The notes beneath the pieces were generated by a model. It did no database searches. It saw only the letters and a program-made list of their open reading frames with translations, and was not told the origin of the DNA. The position numbers and the translations under genes were made by a program. DNA of 63,447 bases, filler included. It is 9 parts of 9 records of this genome, joined end to end, with 100 filler letters (N's around TTAATTAATTAA, not from the genome) between each part and the next. Parts side by side here need not be neighbours in the genome. Positions count along the whole stretch, not along the records: positions 7,256 to 12,332 come from SRR31147125_69350; 8 more parts are not named here. One strand, given 5' to 3'. Each line of letters starts with the position of its first letter. The first letter of the stretch is position 1. Shown here one piece after another: positions 7,156 to 56,861 of the stretch.

Positions 7156-7255
7156 NNNNNNNNNNNNNNNNNNNNNNNNNNNNNNNNNNNNNNNNNNNNT
7201 TAATTAATTAANNNNNNNNNNNNNNNNNNNNNNNNNNNNNNNNNNNNNNNNNNNN
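7156..7255. other. Artificial contig linker
   Basis: N44-TTAATTAATTAA-N44, giving stops in all six frames. Confidence 0.99.
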
Positions 7256-7270
7256 ATTCCTCACTATTCC

Positions 7271-10200
7271 TCACTCCTCACGGAACTTGTTGAACTTGAA
7301 GTCTGTTCCGAAGATGTCGTCACTTCCCAGTGCATAGTCGTGGAAGGTTCCCTCAATGACACCCTCTCCTTGATGGCCCAGCGGCTTGGCGCGGACCGGA
7401 CGACGGGCTGTCACACCGAGCAGTCCATGGACGTTCACATTCATTGGTGTTTGCCCTGTCTTGGAATTCAGCGCAACATCCAAATGCCTAAAAGGAGAGA
7501 ATCCAACGTAAGAAGAACAAGGAATGGATGACAAAGAAGACGGGGAACGCACAGGTTCTCTGTGTCAAGAACCATCATACGAGAGACAATGAAGATCCAC
7601 TCGCCCACATGAGCCTCAAGCCTTTGACTGGTGAAGAATACGGTTGCTGGGGAGGATCGACACTTCAGTACGAATCCAAACCATCCTCTCCTCTCCCACC
7701 TTCATTCTGAAGATGGAAGACACCGCGGCCATCTGGTTCAACCCATGGATCGAACACAGCCTGGCCGGATGTGTCCAAGTACACCTTGTGTTTGCCGATG
7801 CGCATGCCCACCTGCATATACGCGTTATGATTCACAAAGCAGCGTGTGTAGATAGGTGGGAACACACCTCGCCAATGTATGTTGCTTCGGGATCTTCGGG
7901 AAACTGTACAAATCGTGCATTCACCTGCATGTCCGCAGCACTGAAAATATTAAACACCTGCATCCAGTATACGGGATGAGACGAGAAAGGAACGAGGGCG
8001 GTCCTGCTCCTTGCCGTACCCTTCCGGGTTCTCCCATGACATCGTATTCACCACCATAGAACGCCTTGAAGTGGGGATCTCCCTCAACACTACCGGGATC
8101 GGGATCAATCGTACAATCATTCTTACAACCGTCTGGTGATGGGGAGTCAGCAGGAATCGAATGAAGGGCAAACCGTGCCAAGACAAACCGAAATCATTGT
8201 CATTTCCATCATCACAATCTGAAGAGTGTGTCATTAACGTCTGATACAGTGAATGGTTCCGTGTCCACACGTACCCTCGCCGATCTGAGGCTCGAGAACA
8301 CCGTTTCCACAGACAGGTCGTGTGCAAGGAGGGCCACACGTGAGAGGTGGAGGACGTGTGCAAATCGTTCCGTAGCACTGTAGTGTTGGTGTGTGAGTGT
8401 GCGTGTGAGTGAGAACAGGGAGTCACGCACCATGGTGCTTCCTGTTTCCCCGTCATCGCATTCCTCTCCATCTTCCTTAACCCCATTTCCGCATACAGGA
8501 TCGTTTGGATCCGGGGGCAGTTGGCATGTGTCCGAGCATCCCACTTCCCCTCCTTGACTCTCCGGCGGGTCACATTCTTCGTTAACATCAATATATCCAT
8601 CTCCACAAACCCCAAGCAGACATGTAACATCATTACACTAGTGCACGAATTAGACATGAAAAACGAAAACAATCAGGCCTCGTACCAAGACATTCACAGG
8701 GGGTGCCAGAGGATCACATTCTTCGCCACAGCCAGTAGAGATAATACCATCGCCACAGATAGGCACGGTACACATACTGGTACACTACACACCAGATGAG
8801 AAGATGAAGAAAGGATGAAGAAAGACAAAAGAAAGACATACGGTGCAGTCATTGTCGTCGTCAAGATTTCCATCATCACACTCTGTATCTCTCACGTCAC
8901 CAAAGGAAACAAAAGAAACAAAAGAAACAAAGGAAAAACAACCGTACCCTCTGGTGGTTCCACAATTCCATTTCCACACACGGGCGGACTTGGGACCGTA
9001 GAGGGCGATGGTTCGGGTCCGTCACAACAGTACGTTCCCCAGTGGATGCATCCTACATCCGTGTTACAAAATCGAACACAACCAACAAACTCTGCTACGC
9101 ACCTCCCTTGGAGCGACCGCGAGGGGTAATGCACCTCTTCGAACTGCCCGAACCACCACACCAGCACTTCTCTCCTTTCTCGTGAACCCACGCCGTCTCG
9201 TGAGAGATACACGTTCCTCCGTGACTTCCTCCACAGCGTTCCGAAATACGCGAGCCATAGCCACCACAACCACACGGTTGCTCGATGATGAGATCCAGGT
9301 GAATGTAGATCCAGATGCAATGCTGAACACATCGTTAGATCTCATTTCAAGTAGTTCAAACGAAGACACGCACATCACAGAAGGAAGGTGGAATTTCAAT
9401 GGTAAATTCGTGATCAGGACCCGAGGGAGCGCCTCCACTGCATCCACCCTTGCGCTGGTGTCCACGGCATTTTGCAATGGAAAAGGAGGAAACGGTAGGT
9501 TCACCCGACCTCGGACTTCCGTTCTCCCCCAGACCAAAGTATGGGCTGGTAGGATCCAGATCCAGATGGTAGTTGTCGCTGCAGGATACATGGAAGGGAT
9601 CGGTGAACCCAGGGAGGGCGCCTTGATTCGTTCCGGGATTGCCATTGTAGACACCATCCGATCCAGCTGCATTGTTCCCGGTGATGATGGTCCCGTCACT
9701 GAAGGTGAAGACCCACGACTTGTAACGACCAGAGGAAACGGGGCATCCCGCCGCCATGGTGCTGTCCTCACCATCGGATGCTTCTGGGGGACACGAACCA
9801 CACGACCCACGACGACGACCATCCGAGCATTTCTGGATGGCAAAGGCCACGATGGGTTCATCCACTGCTTGGTCGCATGACGGAGGGTTGGGACAGTTAG
9901 GGGCACCCGAACTTTTCTCACTAAATCCAAAGCGGGGGCTGCTTGACTGGTGATCCATGTTGAAATCATCACTACACGACACGTGTGTAGTCAATCCGCT
10001 GTTGGAAGGGATGTTGGCCTCATTCGACTGTCCCGTGTAATAGGGACTGGACGGATCGATATTGTTGCCCATGACCTCGGTGCCGTCGGCATATTTGAAG
10101 TAGAAGAACGATCCGGACCCCTCGGGTGGGCACGGGCCCAGAAGTTGTGCCGTGACACAACCAAATCGGCCAGGTGGGGGAGCTCGGTTGGGACAGTGCT

Positions 10201-10712
10201 TGTAGGGGCTATCCCAGCTTGTATCGCAACGGCCCGTAGGATCGCAATCGGGACACTCGGAACCACCGCCTTCCACAATACGAACATCGGTCTTCACAGC
10301 TTCCGATCCACGAAGAGAGACTCCGGGATTAAGGTCGAGTGTCACACGAACGGGTGCTCCGGGACCCTCTTGGGTCAGGTGGGCAGCACCCGCAACCTTC
10401 TCCTCAGCACCATAACGAATGGTCTTCCAAGTTTCAATCGGATAGATTTGCTCGTAGTCATCGCAGGAATCTGAGTGGGAATTCTTGTAAGGACGTTGAA
10501 ACGGACGGTCACGGAAACAACGTACATGGCGACGGTGGAGAAATATCATCCGGTGCCGTTGGGGGATCATACGTACGTGGGGCCTGGCTCCATACCATAA
10601 CCAGCCCCGCCAAGAGAATACAGGCGGCAATCTGGGGATGACAGAACAAACGAACGAATGAGCACATGACGAGAAGGAGCAAAGTCAAAAGATCACACAC
10701 CCGAAGGTCCAT
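7271..10712 (-). CDS. Eukaryotic 15-exon gene (gene A): secreted Cys-rich multidomain protein of 881 aa with signal peptide, two HVSCSD repeats, five CGNG/CGDG..ECD repeats and a C-terminal GDPH/VWD-like domain
   Basis: Hand-spliced exons (minus strand): 10712-10701, 10631-10526, 10470-9374, 9322-9103, 9052-8948, 8882-8842, 8784-8686, 8637-8431, 8377-8275, 8218-8189, 8132-8020, 7957-7868, 7811-7700, 7646-7553, 7487-7271. Total 2646 nt in one open frame; all 14 introns are GT..AG, 48-69 nt. The first intron is in-frame and stop-free, so the extreme N-terminus is less certain. Confidence 0.85.
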
Positions 10713-10957
10713 GCGCAATGATGTGAAATGTGGAAGAACAACTAAGGGGGAAGAAGAGGGGGAGGAGTCCAAGTCAGGGTCACGGCGTTCTGTACGAAGC
10801 AGCAAGTGCAGTGATTACGCAGTGGGTGTAGTGTGTGCACGAGAAGCGTGTCCTCCTCCTCCCCCCATCCATTCCATCAACCACCCAACGTACCGGAAGA
10901 AGGAGAGAGGAAAGTGGATCTACCAGAAGACAAACCGAACATAGTACATTTTAGTTT

Positions 10958-11119
10958 CCAAAAAAGGGTCCTCCATGTCCTGATATGGGAACCGTTCATG
11001 TCTTCCACCACGCCATGCCTCACGCGCACAATGATGGAGAGAGTGAAGCGCAATGCGTAGGAAGCACACGGAGAAATATGGAAGATTTCCTCTTATGGGC
11101 AGGCTCCTTCCATATATGG
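10958..11119. promoter_or_regulatory. Four CArG-type boxes in a bidirectional promoter
   Basis: CCAAAAAAGG 10958-10967, CCTGATATGG 10979-10988, CCTCTTATGG 11089-11098, CCATATATGG 11110-11119; each pair is spaced 21 bp start-to-start. Confidence 0.6.
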
Positions 11120-11336
11120 AAGACTTGTGTTGGACTCGGTCCTCGGGTTCTACGATGTGTCTATGGAAGGAAGGGATGATGTGAATCCATGCAAATGAAG
11201 GAGGGAGGAGTGTTCGAGAGTCATCTTGTGTGTTGAAGAATGCTCCAAGACCTAAACTCCGATCGTTGGGTCTCAGTTCCATCCCCTCTTCCTCTCCTCC
11301 CGTCTTCTTCCCTTTCCTGCCACACCGCACCACACC

Positions 11337-12332
11337 ATGCCACTGAATTGGGTATGTGGGATGTTTGTGTGCACACTGCTCCCCGGGGTTCACGTGTTTC
11401 ACGCTTCAACACGGCTTGGGGTTCACACCTTCTCACACACCTTCTACAACTGCATGCAGGCCGTCTGTGCCGTACTTCTTCTTGCACCTGTCACCCTCGC
11501 ACTTAGCGTTAAGGAGGGTACGTGGAATATTCGAAGGGTTGTGGCATGTAGGTCCTCACACCTCCCCATCTCCTTTCCCCCTGTCTACGTCTGGTCTCTT
11601 AGATGTCTGCGCCTCATTCCCTGCCGAGGGGATGTCCATGACGCGTTCCATCTACTACGGAGACTACCAACCTGCCGGGAGCGTTACACTCACGCAAGAG
11701 GCTCCTGGTGTCCCAATCCGTGTATCCTGGGCCCTCAACGCCAATGTTCGTCTATCACGAGACCGCGTTTATTATCTGGGAGTGCACAAGGGCGACCCGG
11801 CAATTCACGCAGAAGCCATGGTCATGTCGGATTTGGCGGGCGGCGAGTGTCCCCAATGCAGCCCCGATGGATATTGTGGAGGATACAGCAGTTGCCCTGT
11901 TGAGCAGGCAGGATATCCCAACGTGGAACACTTTGACTTCAGCTGGCCCCAGTTCCCGTCTTGCCCATCGTCCGGACGAGGATCCTACTACAGCATCTCC
12001 TTTGGTTCCGCAGGAGTTGTAGAAGGATCAAACTTCCCAGGTGGCTCAGGATACACGGGGGAGTCGGATGAGGTGTGTACGGATGGATGGGTGTAGCACG
12101 GGAATATGTAACACAAGTGCTTCAGGCCGCAATGCCCGAGGATGAAGCACTCAGCGACAATGTCGTTGTGGATTGTTCCGACAAATTCCATCTTAACGAA
12201 CTACCCGACCACATAGATTACGGGTGGGGAGAGAAAAAGGCTCCCACTAGGTCTGTGGATATGTTTCCAATCGATGCCTACTCCATGACGCGGTGCAAGT
12301 ATGGAAATATCCGCAGCGTATGTGACTCCCCC
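11337..12332 (+). CDS. Eukaryotic intron-containing secreted protein (gene B), paralogue of gene A, 3'-truncated
   Basis: Exons 11337-11351, 11460-11517, 11603-12072 and 12126 to the contig end (GT..AG introns of 108, 85 and 53 nt; alternative start at ATG 11454). Signal peptide AVCAVLLLAPVTLA; AGSVTLTQEAPGVPIRV aligns with AGAAHLTQEGPGAPVRV of gene A. Confidence 0.8.
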
Positions 12333-12432
12333 NNNNNNNNNNNNNNNNNNNNNNNNNNNNNNNNNNNNNNNNNNNNTTAATTAATTAANNNNNNNNNNNN
12401 NNNNNNNNNNNNNNNNNNNNNNNNNNNNNNNN
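12333..12432. other. Artificial contig linker
   Basis: N44-TTAATTAATTAA-N44. Confidence 0.99.
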
Positions 12433-13533
12433 CTGCAGGCCGCGGTTGGTGTATTTTTTGGCTATCGAAACAACCAGGCGCAGGTTCGCTTCGATCAGCT
12501 CCGCCTTCGCTTTCTTGGCAATCCACTCACCTTTGTAGACTTCCTTCAGATACTCGAGCAGGTCAGCCGGCTCGAAACCGGATTCCTCCTTAACTCGCCT
12601 GAACTTCCGCTCTGCAGCCTGAAGTCTCTTCTCGACCGACAGGAGGACATCACCGGCAACGCTTAACTCTTCAGCGACCGCATGGGCTTCCTCGTCGCTC
12701 TGACGCATACGTGTCAGGTAATCACCGATTTCACCGTGGGGACGACTGACCTTCTTCTCGCAATCGGCAATCTCAGCCTGCCCTTTCTTGACCTGATTCC
12801 CCATCTCCTTAAGACGGTCAACGATTTTCGCGACCTGGAAATCCTTCAAGCGGACTTCGCGCAGCAACTCAATCATCTGCTCGCGAGCCTCAGCTTCCTT
12901 CTTTTCCAGTGACGTCCGCTTACGCTTGGTCAACTCACCCTGCAGTTCCTCAAGAATCTGGTTGAGCTTTTCATCAAGCGGGCCCAGCTTGGTCTGCAAT
13001 TCCAGAAGGCGCTCACGCTGTTTCCCTTCGGCCTCTCCACCCTCTTCATCATCATAATCACGGGTGATATCGGACACACCGATCTGTCCTTTTTCCAGGC
13101 GCGTGAACAACTGCATCACCTCACGAGCAGCGATCGGCGTACGCATGACAACCTTGGTCACCAACGCCTCACCCTCTTCGATCCTCTTGGCGATTTCAAC
13201 TTCGCCTTCGCGGGTCAGAAGAGCCACCTGCCCCATTTCACGCAGGTACATACGAACCGGGTCACTGGTTCGCCCAAGGGTCCCGGCTTCCAGCTCGACT
13301 TCGTTCTCATCCTCGTCGTCGGACTCCTCGTCCTTCGAGTTGGGCACCTTGTTGTCGGAGTCAACAATTTCGATATCCATCTCACCGAACATGCTCATGA
13401 CGTCTTCAAGCTGTTCCGACGACACCATACTCGCCGGCAACATGTCATTGACTTCATCATAGGTCAGGAATCCTTTTTCCTTCCCCATGTCGATGAGTTG
13501 CTGAACCTCTTCCGGATTTGTCTTTTTCGCCAT
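12433..13533 (-). CDS. rpoD: RNA polymerase primary sigma factor, 3'-truncated
   Basis: Region 1.1 GKEKGFLTYDEVND, region 1.2 DPVRMYLREMG, region 2 LIEANLRLVVSIAKKYTNRGLQ. Confidence 0.97.
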
Positions 13534-13631: not shown

Positions 13632-15459
13632 TTATTGACTGCGATTCCTGATTTTCTGCTGAAGTTCGGACAATTCATATCGATATTGGTCAGCTTTCGC
13701 GCTGTCACCACTCTGGTCCGCTTCAGGAATCAGTCTCTTCTGCAACTTTTCCACTTCCTGCTTGAGTCGCTTCTCTTTCAGTTTCCAAAGGCAATCGTCC
13801 ATCGCCTGGTTGATCGAATCTCCGAACTCCTGCGCATCGCCATTATTCAGACGAGCCAGCAACGCGTCCTGATCGGGAGTTAACGATTTTGCACTCATCA
13901 CCCCCGGCTTCGGCCTCTGTTAACAGAACCGACAAAGCCTGTGCGTCCGGATGTGTCAGCATTTCCGCGGCATCGCTTGCGACGAAGCGGTTTCGCGCTT
14001 TTTCACTGCACGCCAGCAGGCGCAGCAGGGTCTCTTCCGGCCGACTCATTTTCGGAGCTACGGCCACCGGAACAGCCTCATGCGGAACCTGGAGATCAAC
14101 GGGCTCATAAGGAGCGTAAGCATCTTCCGGCGGTGGCGGGCTGGAAGGCTCGTAAGCTGGCTTCCGCTCGCGCGGCTGCGGCTTTTTCTGCTTCAGGGTC
14201 TCAAGATCAATGCCGCTGCGCTGGGCCAGATCTTTCAGATACAGGTCCTGCTCCAGTGTGCTGTTCAACTCATGAATCTGCTGCAATACCGTTTCAACCG
14301 CGGCGGCTTTGTCTTCAATCGTGTCGGCGCCGGCCAGGCAATCTTCCATGAACACGTCCATCACTGGCCTGGCCGCGTCCAAGCGTTCTGAAAAAGCATC
14401 CGGCCCCTGTTTCTGAACAAACGAGTCAGGGTCTTCTCCCGCCGGCAGGGTAATCACAACCGCCGTAACCGCTGCCTCCTGCAGGACGCGCATCGCTTTG
14501 AAGGTTGCCTGTTTACCCGCCTCGTCCTGATCAAAGAGCAGCACAACCCGCTTGACGTAACGTTTGAGCAAACGCGCATGGTCCGCCGTCAGTGCGGTTC
14601 CACAGGTGGCAACCACCTGCTGAAACCCGGCCCGATAAAGAGCCAGCTGGTCGAAGTATCCTTCAACCAGAATGACCTCATTGGTCTTACGCATCGCCTG
14701 ACGCGCCTGATACAAGCCAAAGAGAACCCGACCCTTATGATAGATCGGCGACTCGGGCGAATTGATATATTTTGGCTTGCCCGCATCCAGAACGCGCCCG
14801 GCTAACGCGACGACCCGCCCCGAAACGTCGTAGATCGGGAACATCAGGCAGCCGCGGAACAGATCGTAGTCGCCACGGTTCTGCTTCCCCGGGCGGATCA
14901 GCCCGAGGCTGCGAACATCATCGGCCTGACATCCCTTTTCTTCCAGGTGCTGTTTGAGCCCTTCCCAGGAATCCGGGGCGAAGCCGATCTGATATTCCGT
15001 CGCCGCTTTGCGCCCATACCCCCTCTGTTTCATGTACGCTCGCGCCGGTTCACCCGCGGGCTCGTCCATCAGAATCTGATGAAACCAGGTCGCAGCGAGC
15101 TCATTGACATCAAATAGCCGTTCCCGCTGTTTCCGTCGCTGATCTTCCTCCGGTGACGGAGGGCGCTCTTCAATGGTAACACCAACTTCCGCCGCCAAAC
15201 GCTTGCAGGCGTCCCGAAAGCCGAGGCCTTCAAAATGCATCAACAGTGAAATCGCATCGCCGCCAGCACCACAGCCGAAGCAGTGATAGCGCTGCCGCGA
15301 ACTGTTCACGTTGAACGATGGCGTCTTCTCACTGTGAAACGGACAGCACCCCATGTTGTTGACACCGGTCCGCTTGAGCGTCATGTAGCGCGACGCGAGC
15401 TCGACGATATCGACCCGATCAAGGATCTGCTCAATCGTTTCGTCCGGGATAAGCGCCAT
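13632..15459 (-). CDS. dnaG: DNA primase, with a frameshift near the 3' end
   Basis: CHC2 zinc finger CPFHSEKTPSF..HCFGC, KYINSPES, TOPRIM VEGYFD and FDQDEAG; the C-terminal helical domain continues in another frame after the C5 run at 13901-13905. Confidence 0.93.
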
Positions 15460-18211: not shown

Positions 18212-18311
18212 NNNNNNNNNNNNNNNNNNNNNNNNNNNNNNNNNNNNNNNNNNNNTTAATTAATTAANNNNNNNNNNNNNNNNNNNNNNNNNNNNNNNNN
18301 NNNNNNNNNNN
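18212..18311. other. Artificial contig linker
   Basis: N44-TTAATTAATTAA-N44. Confidence 0.99.
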
Positions 18312-26707: not shown

Positions 26708-26807
26708 NNNNNNNNNNNNNNNNNNNNNNNNNNNNNNNNNNNNNNNNNNNNTTAATTAATTAANNNNNNNNNNNNNNNNNNNNNNNNNNNNNNNNNNNNN
26801 NNNNNNN
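26708..26807. other. Artificial contig linker
   Basis: N44-TTAATTAATTAA-N44. Confidence 0.99.
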
Positions 26808-32192: not shown

Positions 32193-32292
32193 NNNNNNNN
32201 NNNNNNNNNNNNNNNNNNNNNNNNNNNNNNNNNNNNTTAATTAATTAANNNNNNNNNNNNNNNNNNNNNNNNNNNNNNNNNNNNNNNNNNNN
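32193..32292. other. Artificial contig linker
   Basis: N44-TTAATTAATTAA-N44. Confidence 0.99.
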
Positions 32293-37640: not shown

Positions 37641-37740
37641 NNNNNNNNNNNNNNNNNNNNNNNNNNNNNNNNNNNNNNNNNNNNTTAATTAATTAANNNN
37701 NNNNNNNNNNNNNNNNNNNNNNNNNNNNNNNNNNNNNNNN
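37641..37740. other. Artificial contig linker
   Basis: N44-TTAATTAATTAA-N44. Confidence 0.99.
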
Positions 37741-43992: not shown

Positions 43993-44092
43993 NNNNNNNN
44001 NNNNNNNNNNNNNNNNNNNNNNNNNNNNNNNNNNNNTTAATTAATTAANNNNNNNNNNNNNNNNNNNNNNNNNNNNNNNNNNNNNNNNNNNN
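43993..44092. other. Artificial contig linker
   Basis: N44-TTAATTAATTAA-N44. Confidence 0.99.
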
Positions 44093-56761: not shown

Positions 56762-56861
56762 NNNNNNNNNNNNNNNNNNNNNNNNNNNNNNNNNNNNNNN
56801 NNNNNTTAATTAATTAANNNNNNNNNNNNNNNNNNNNNNNNNNNNNNNNNNNNNNNNNNNN
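56762..56861. other. Artificial contig linker
   Basis: N44-TTAATTAATTAA-N44. Confidence 0.99.

Follow-up and report, generated by a model that had tools for sequence, protein, structure and literature searches.

Two paralogous genes, A and B, lie head to head on a eukaryotic contig of 5,077 bp (positions 7256-12332, GC 0.526), and four CArG-like boxes in two pairs occupy the middle of the interval between them. Gene A (7271-10712, minus strand) and gene B (11337-12332, plus strand, cut by the contig end) are separated by 624 bp from ATG to ATG. The window, i.e., the whole stretch of 63,447 nucleotides that was analyzed, consists of nine unrelated contigs of 5.1-12.7 kb each (GC 0.385-0.563), joined by spacers made up of 44 N, 12 A/T bases and 44 N (7156-7255, 12333-12432, 18212-18311, 26708-26807, 32193-32292, 37641-37740, 43993-44092 and 56762-56861). 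Contigs that stand side by side in the window are without physical linkage to the box-bearing contig, which is the only eukaryotic one among them; the remaining eight have long ORFs, densely packed in bacterial style. On the contig that follows the box-bearing one, the ORFs at 12385-13533 and 13843-15459 (minus) resemble genes for a bacterial sigma-70 factor and, next to it, a DNA primase, as judged from translations read by eye.

Structure and transcription of the divergent genes

Public sequencing for the contig comprises two runs (X1 and X2) from one sample and one study, neither of them listed as RNA. The kind of run X1 is unrecorded and had been guessed to be DNA; from its intron-skipping joints we read it as transcript-derived. 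The two X1 contigs skip introns at GT..AG boundaries (15 joints shown of the 17 reported), and X2, from the same sample, yielded unspliced pieces at low depth. Since the X1 contigs are without introns, X1 is taken to derive from transcripts, and thus the sample contained spliced transcripts of both gene A and gene B. That X1 instead represents DNA copies of the two neighbours that lack introns is much less probable. Transcription of both genes is documented by spliced contigs from one sample, in which contig depth cannot rank expression, and finding the two transcripts together in a single run does not amount to co-regulation.

Gene A is split into 15 exons by 14 introns (48-69 nt, all GT..AG) and has an ORF of 881 aa. 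The intron at 9323-9373 (51 nt, GT..AG; joint 9322 to 9374) splices out an apparent stop at 9356-9358, so that gene A and what had appeared as a downstream multi-intron gene are one gene. The two 5'-most joints of gene A were deduced from the record length of 2,682 nt and the depth bins, which fit exons at 10526-10631 and 10701 to ~10723. Gene B has exons at 11337-11351, 11460-11517, 11603-12072 and 12126-12332, hence three introns, and its spliced contig continues ~1,384 nt past the contig end. The spliced contigs, which reach just beyond both ATGs, agree with the start codons that had been proposed from the letters of the DNA (10712, minus strand; 11337, plus strand).

The two genes had been described as paralogues, and the comparison supports this: the ORFs share 32% identity across 152 aa (E = 3e-14), and the spliced models 29% across 268 aa (E = 2e-24, with the first gene A model, ending at the apparent stop). 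Both genes begin with an exon of 4-5 codons, a phase-0 intron and an exon that encodes the hydrophobic core of a signal-peptide-like segment. This common layout suggests that the pair arose long ago by an inverted duplication in which the 5' end was copied as well. The signal-peptide-like N-termini and the 624 bp between the ATGs also agree with the proposal of secreted products that share a short promoter.

None of the 17 introns (7488-10700 and 11352-12125) has a GTAAGT or GTGAGT donor; GTGCGT, GTACGT, GTGTGT, GTATGT and similar donors were seen. Donors of the GTRYGT form, with no GTRAGT, are unusual for diatoms. Fourteen short introns in one gene are atypical for diatoms, and a gene with 14 introns is unusual in oomycetes. 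The donor sites, together with the tight intron sizes of gene A, could help to place the lineage. A T-rich short tandem repeat (TTTGTTTC-like) is found inside a gene A intron at 8902-8931.

The CArG-like array between the two genes

The 5' ends of the spliced contigs lie near 10723 (gene A) and 11299 (gene B), as deduced from depth bins. The interval between them (10724-11298, ~575 bp) was obtained from record lengths and depth bins and is delimited by minimum 5' ends rather than mapped starts. The head-to-head genes are therefore less than 1 kb apart by either measure (an ATG-to-ATG distance of 624 bp, or ~575 bp from one contig 5' end to the other), as expected of a bidirectional promoter. 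X1 cover is present over both genes and absent from the bins 10826-10995 and 10996-11165. This places the box array in an untranscribed centre, upstream of both transcripts and ~180-235 bp from either minimum 5' end.

Box 1 (CCAAAAAAGG, 10958-10967) is a perfect CC(A/T)6GG with a TTTCC flank on its left. Box 2 (CCTGATATGG, 10979-10988), 21 bp from box 1, has one core mismatch and a GGGAA flank on its right. Box 3 (CCTCTTATGG, 11089-11098) also has one core mismatch, with a TTTCC flank on its left. Box 4 (CCATATATGG, 11110-11119), 21 bp from box 3, is perfect and lies within the 16-bp palindrome CTTCCATATATGGAAG (11107-11122). The four box positions, the 21-bp spacing in both pairs and the palindrome had been reported by the sequence-only reading, and all were confirmed on the sequence. 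The start-to-start spacing is 21 bp in both pairs, the two pairs are 131 bp apart, and the centre of the cluster (11038.5) is 14 bp off the centre of the 624-bp interval.

With two perfect and two one-mismatch cores, the boxes match the CC(A/T)6GG core of a MADS (SRF/Mcm1) element. When the extended flanks TTNCC...GGNAA are considered, box 4 has both, boxes 1 and 3 have the left one only, and box 2 the right one only. Just outside the CC and GG of the four boxes, the CC side carries a pyrimidine at 8 of 8 positions, and "TTCC...GGAA"-like flanks recur. Boxes 1-3 read T(T/G)TCC-N6-GGG in one common orientation, which makes them direct repeats by their flanks. Hence, the order perfect, mismatch, mismatch, perfect is no true mirror. 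The sequence-only reading had described a mirror-symmetric quartet; the order and the equal spacing hold, but the symmetry is superficial.

The repeated unit can be described as an A/T run followed by GGAA or GGGA, and four pairs of such units make the CArG-like dyads. Other units stand by themselves. The half-site ATATGGAAG (11076-11084, plus strand) has no CC partner and the half-site TATGGAAG (11162-11169, plus strand) no dyad partner. Two of the six TATGG half-sites are without a CC partner, and the copies of TATGGAAG at 11077 and 11162 are partnerless. The promoter holds four copies of TGGAAGA, as it does of TATGGAAG (four). The heat-shock-type spacing TTCnnGAA is absent from the promoter, as read by eye from the sequence.

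A 9-nt insertion at 11042/11043, between the two box pairs, is present in one X2 DNA contig of 151 nt (depth 2.9), which is otherwise identical to 11011-11152 and leaves boxes 3 and 4 unchanged. The insertion suggests that each pair, rather than a rigid quartet, is the unit, but with one contig of such low depth it may be an error.

All tests on the cluster were post hoc, since the pattern had first been spotted by eye. The two perfect and two one-mismatch boxes are the only ones of either kind in the 5,077-bp contig. The rate of about one perfect CC(A/T)6GG per 16 kb given by the sequence-only reading is right: over the 63-kb window 4 perfect boxes were found vs. 4.14 ± 1.94 expected, and 65 of 100 shuffles reached 4, so that there is no enrichment at this scale. 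In dinucleotide shuffles of the 624-bp interval, at least two perfect boxes appeared in 4 of 20,000 and at least four boxes of either kind in 9 of 20,000; in whole-contig shuffles, at least four boxes fell within 170 bp in 2 of 3,000. With four boxes randomly placed, equal pair spacing has P = 0.0033. Half-sites were also counted. TATGGAAG is one of two 8-mers with 4 copies; 8 of 2,000 shuffles contained any 8-mer that often, and this count is free of prior choice. The 6 copies of TATGG all lie within 10984-11166 (shuffle mean 0.77; 6 reached in 0 of 5,000). WWWGGAAR has 5 copies in the promoter, all within 10955-11169 (5 reached in 0 of 5,000 shuffles), and the remaining 4.4 kb of the contig hold 6 more. 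The box cluster is non-random.

The two halves of the promoter, set in mirror orientation, have colinear blocks in common: the boxes, a GGAGGGAGGAG block and, in front of each ATG, a pyrimidine tract. On the gene A side, the pyrimidine-rich tract in gene A sense (10747-10766, minus strand) is ~35-55 bp upstream of the start codon. It is mirrored before the gene B start by a tract at 11278-11312 (plus strand), which contains the 5' end of the gene B contig (~11299). The mirror alignment of the two halves scored 62.5 vs. 24.1 ± 10.4 for shuffles, a value reached in 1 of 1,000. The direct-orientation control was also high (50.0), and the mirror homology is therefore weak; a global alignment of the halves with free end gaps was uninformative. 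Outside the boxes, the same promoter has short direct repeats (GCGCAATGATG / GCACAATGATG, and ATGATGTGAA twice; 10713-10727, and 11026-11036 / 11176-11185), and it also holds low-complexity repeats, e.g., CTCCTCC.

Domains and relatives of the encoded proteins

From its N-terminus, the gene A product comprises a signal-like segment, an N-domain, two HVSCSD-type repeats, a Cys-rich region, Myxococcus-type Cys repeats and a C-terminal domain with a GDPHF motif. The Myxococcus Cys-rich repeat TIGR02232 scored 35.4 bits (cut-off 20.8) on exon 8431-8637, and Pfam DUF4215 scored 25.8 on gene A, below the cut-off of 27. GDPHF, at the start of the C-terminal domain, is encoded in exon 8020-8130; together with the signal-like N-terminus this amounts to a Gly-Asp-Pro-His motif in a secreted modular protein. 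A Pfam scan of the N-terminal 365 aa of gene A returned no family. Among the gene A and gene B pieces scanned with Pfam, 0 families were found besides DUF4215, and no recognisable wall domain (chitin-binding, LRR cyst-wall) was among them.

Gene A has two copies, and gene B one or more, of a repeat of ~95 aa (HVSCSD...GWGEKG; minus-strand region 9374-10468 and plus-strand region 12126-12332). The repeat matched no Pfam or NCBIfam family at the thresholds applied. Among 1.84 billion representatives, an exhaustive HMMER search found four matches, three of which are hypothetical proteins of Acidimicrobiia metagenome-assembled genomes that also carry the repeat (E 1e-9 to 8e-8). The fourth match, P0001 (3,365 aa), consisted of 23 weak stretches at 25% identity and is regarded as repeat-inflated. 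An alignment of the three bacterial relatives then served as the query against 185,579 species genomes; this pattern-limited scan gave 38 pattern matches and 3 confirmed loci, all from Acidimicrobiia. The repeat of about 95 aa is thus common to the Acidimicrobiia surface proteins and to both genes. In contrast, its surroundings differ: the bacterial copies adjoin DUF7467, Big_1 or DUF7507 domains, and the eukaryotic ones stand beside Cys repeats and a GDPH-motif tail. On the basis of this shared sequence, the repeat may have passed between a bacterium and this eukaryote.

Other searches returned no relative. A word-indexed search with the gene A long ORF gave 4,164 candidates and 0 significant ones. 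With single short exons, the GDPH exon gave 19 candidates and the last exon 26, none significant, and there is no Pfam profile for the GDPH domain. The ESM Atlas held no usable match, and an exact 30-mer had 0 matches in the genome collection. A metagenome scan with gene A yielded 74 pattern matches and one with the A/B alignment 156, 0 being confirmed in either, so that these scans supplied no orthologous promoters for footprinting. An AlphaFold2 model of the gene A long exon, built from 9 alignment rows, had a mean pLDDT of 46.2 and a pTM of 0.31, too poor for a fold search.

The adhesive-trail proteins of diatoms are described as secreted and modular, with DUF4215/IPR011936 repeats, a "diatom-specific" GDPH domain and bacteria-derived domains (10.1101/2023.03.06.531300, PMC8027222, PMC7335047). 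Gene A resembles them in its signal-like N-terminus, modular make-up, Myxococcus Cys repeats and Gly-Asp-Pro-His motif. It differs from them in its 14 short introns, and the GDPH likeness is one of motif. From this likeness in make-up we derive both an adhesive or matrix reading of the proteins and a diatom lead on the lineage, a lead that is not a statement of membership. The products of genes A and B are more likely to be large secreted modular proteins that serve as extracellular adhesive or matrix parts than cyst-wall subunits.

Candidate binders and proposed control of the two genes

The centre of the divergent promoter is proposed to be a shared upstream regulatory array for both paralogues. 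It would consist of about seven half-sites of the A/T-run plus GGAA type within 215 bp, four pairs of which form the CArG-like dyads in two 21-bp-spaced pairs, and both paralogues would be driven from this one control region. The array is probably functional, as argued by the statistics, the central untranscribed position and the colinear mirror blocks, the last being a weak point. We infer that it acts on both genes. In kind, the locus is a further instance of known elements, a CArG-like array and a bidirectional promoter.

A MADS-domain dimer related in type to SRF and Mcm1 is predicted as the most likely binder. Two adjacent dimers would occupy each 21-bp pair, side by side on one helix face. 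CCATATATGG corresponds to the optimum obtained in SRF selections, and flanks of the form TTTCC...GGAAA are typical of sites for Mcm1 and for plant MADS proteins. The array resembles SRF/Mcm1-type sites in its two perfect CC(A/T)6GG cores, one of them in a 16-bp palindrome, and in its TTCC...GGAA-type flanks; unlike them, it has four sites as two 21-bp pairs, a bidirectional promoter and extra orphan half-sites. In plant MADS "quartets" and animal muscle genes, CArG pairs on the same helix face are used cooperatively, and in plants several helical turns separate the paired CArG boxes, with looping of the DNA. Here, in contrast to the plant quartets, the centres are only 21 bp apart, which would put the dimers side by side.

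MADS binding specificity is reported to be nearly identical in Phytophthora and human, and sporulation genes are reported to have the oomycete site enriched in their upstream regions (PMC11267843). The two perfect dyads (one palindromic over 16 bp), the TTCC...GGAA-type flanks, the consensus and this conserved specificity (PMC11267843) make a MADS factor a tentative candidate, with a reasonable prospect of being right. The Phytophthora factor (PITG_07059 / PsMAD1) is comparable in that it belongs to a protist and has a conserved A/T-rich site reported to be enriched in stage-specific promoters (PMC11267843, PMC6165875). It differs in that the contig analyzed here is without sign of oomycete origin.

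Several observations count against the MADS proposal or the array as a whole. Owing to the orphan half-sites, the unit recognised may be TATGGAAG and not the dyad. If the host were a diatom-like alga, the candidate would also be at odds with a survey that reports MADS-box genes as absent in diatoms/photosynthetic stramenopiles (PMC4827209). The explanation as a whole is further weakened by the lack of window-wide enrichment of perfect boxes, the post hoc statistics and the weak mirror homology.

A functional array could instead be bound by a non-MADS factor that reads the half-site (A/T)TATGGAAG(A), two inverted copies of which spell CC(A/T)6GG. The four copies each of TATGGAAG and TGGAAGA favor such a factor, as do the two copies of TATGGAAG that have no dyad partner (11077 and 11162). 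In a photosynthetic stramenopile, the reported absence of MADS-box genes and the abundance of HSF, whose cores are GAA/TTC, would add to this; HSF makes up 34% of transcription factors in the diatom column of a published table (67 entries; PMC4827209). However, box 1 (CCAAAAAAGG) is a perfect CArG without TATGG, four full CC...GG dyads occur at an identical 21-bp spacing, TTCnnGAA spacing is absent, and no candidate can be named. We consider a half-site reader nearly as likely as the dimeric MADS factor, which we retain as the preferred binder.

It is unlikely that the cluster is chance or neutral sequence, i.e., a post hoc pattern or the remnant of a local duplication with no regulatory role. 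The pattern was indeed chosen by eye from 63 kb and with a large vocabulary of known motifs in mind; perfect boxes in the window are as frequent as expected (4 vs. 4.14), other low-complexity repeats (CTCCTCC) occur in the region, and conservation lends no support, since the metagenome scans found no relatives. In contrast, the family-wise 8-mer test (8 of 2,000) and the half-site tests (0 of 5,000) go against chance, and the sites are confined to the untranscribed centre. A tandem duplication is contradicted by repeat D4, whose flank similarity is gone after 13 nt.

In Dictyostelium, SrfA controls spore-stage genes. A MADS-controlled bidirectional switch that co-expresses two cyst wall or coat subunits, as an encystment module of an anaerobic protist, had been the proposal of the sequence-only reading, and it is highly improbable: CArG-like dyads and secreted Cys-rich paralogues are evidence it shares with the preferred explanation, and MADS factors are reported to control spore-stage genes in an oomycete (PMC11267843), but the contig gives no sign of anaerobiosis, encystment or a role in a wall, Pfam scans of pieces of both genes returned no known wall domains, nothing indicates an A-B complex, and the modular, adhesive- or matrix-like make-up of gene A (881 aa, Myxococcus-type Cys repeats, GDPH-motif tail) is one described for diatom adhesive proteins (10.1101/2023.03.06.531300).

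A more far-reaching proposal, which we consider a long shot, joins the promoter to the proteins. The 21-bp CArG pairs and the half-sites would be one bidirectional switch for adhesin-like paralogues in a little-known marine microbial eukaryote or, if MADS has been lost there, an unrelated factor would have converged on CArG-like dyads. Either way, the extracellular domain would be shared only with marine Acidimicrobiia, suggesting cross-domain transfer.

These data add to the first description of the locus (i) the make-up of the window as a mixture of contigs; (ii) gene A as a fused gene for a modular secreted protein of 881 aa; and (iii) the expression of both genes. Metagenome-assembled genomes of Acidimicrobiia are the only other known source of the rare unnamed repeat that the protein family bears. 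Should MADS proteins indeed bind the array and control both genes, two-turn CArG pairs would drive two protist genes from one small natural element, and the short list of MADS-regulated systems beyond animals, plants and fungi would grow.
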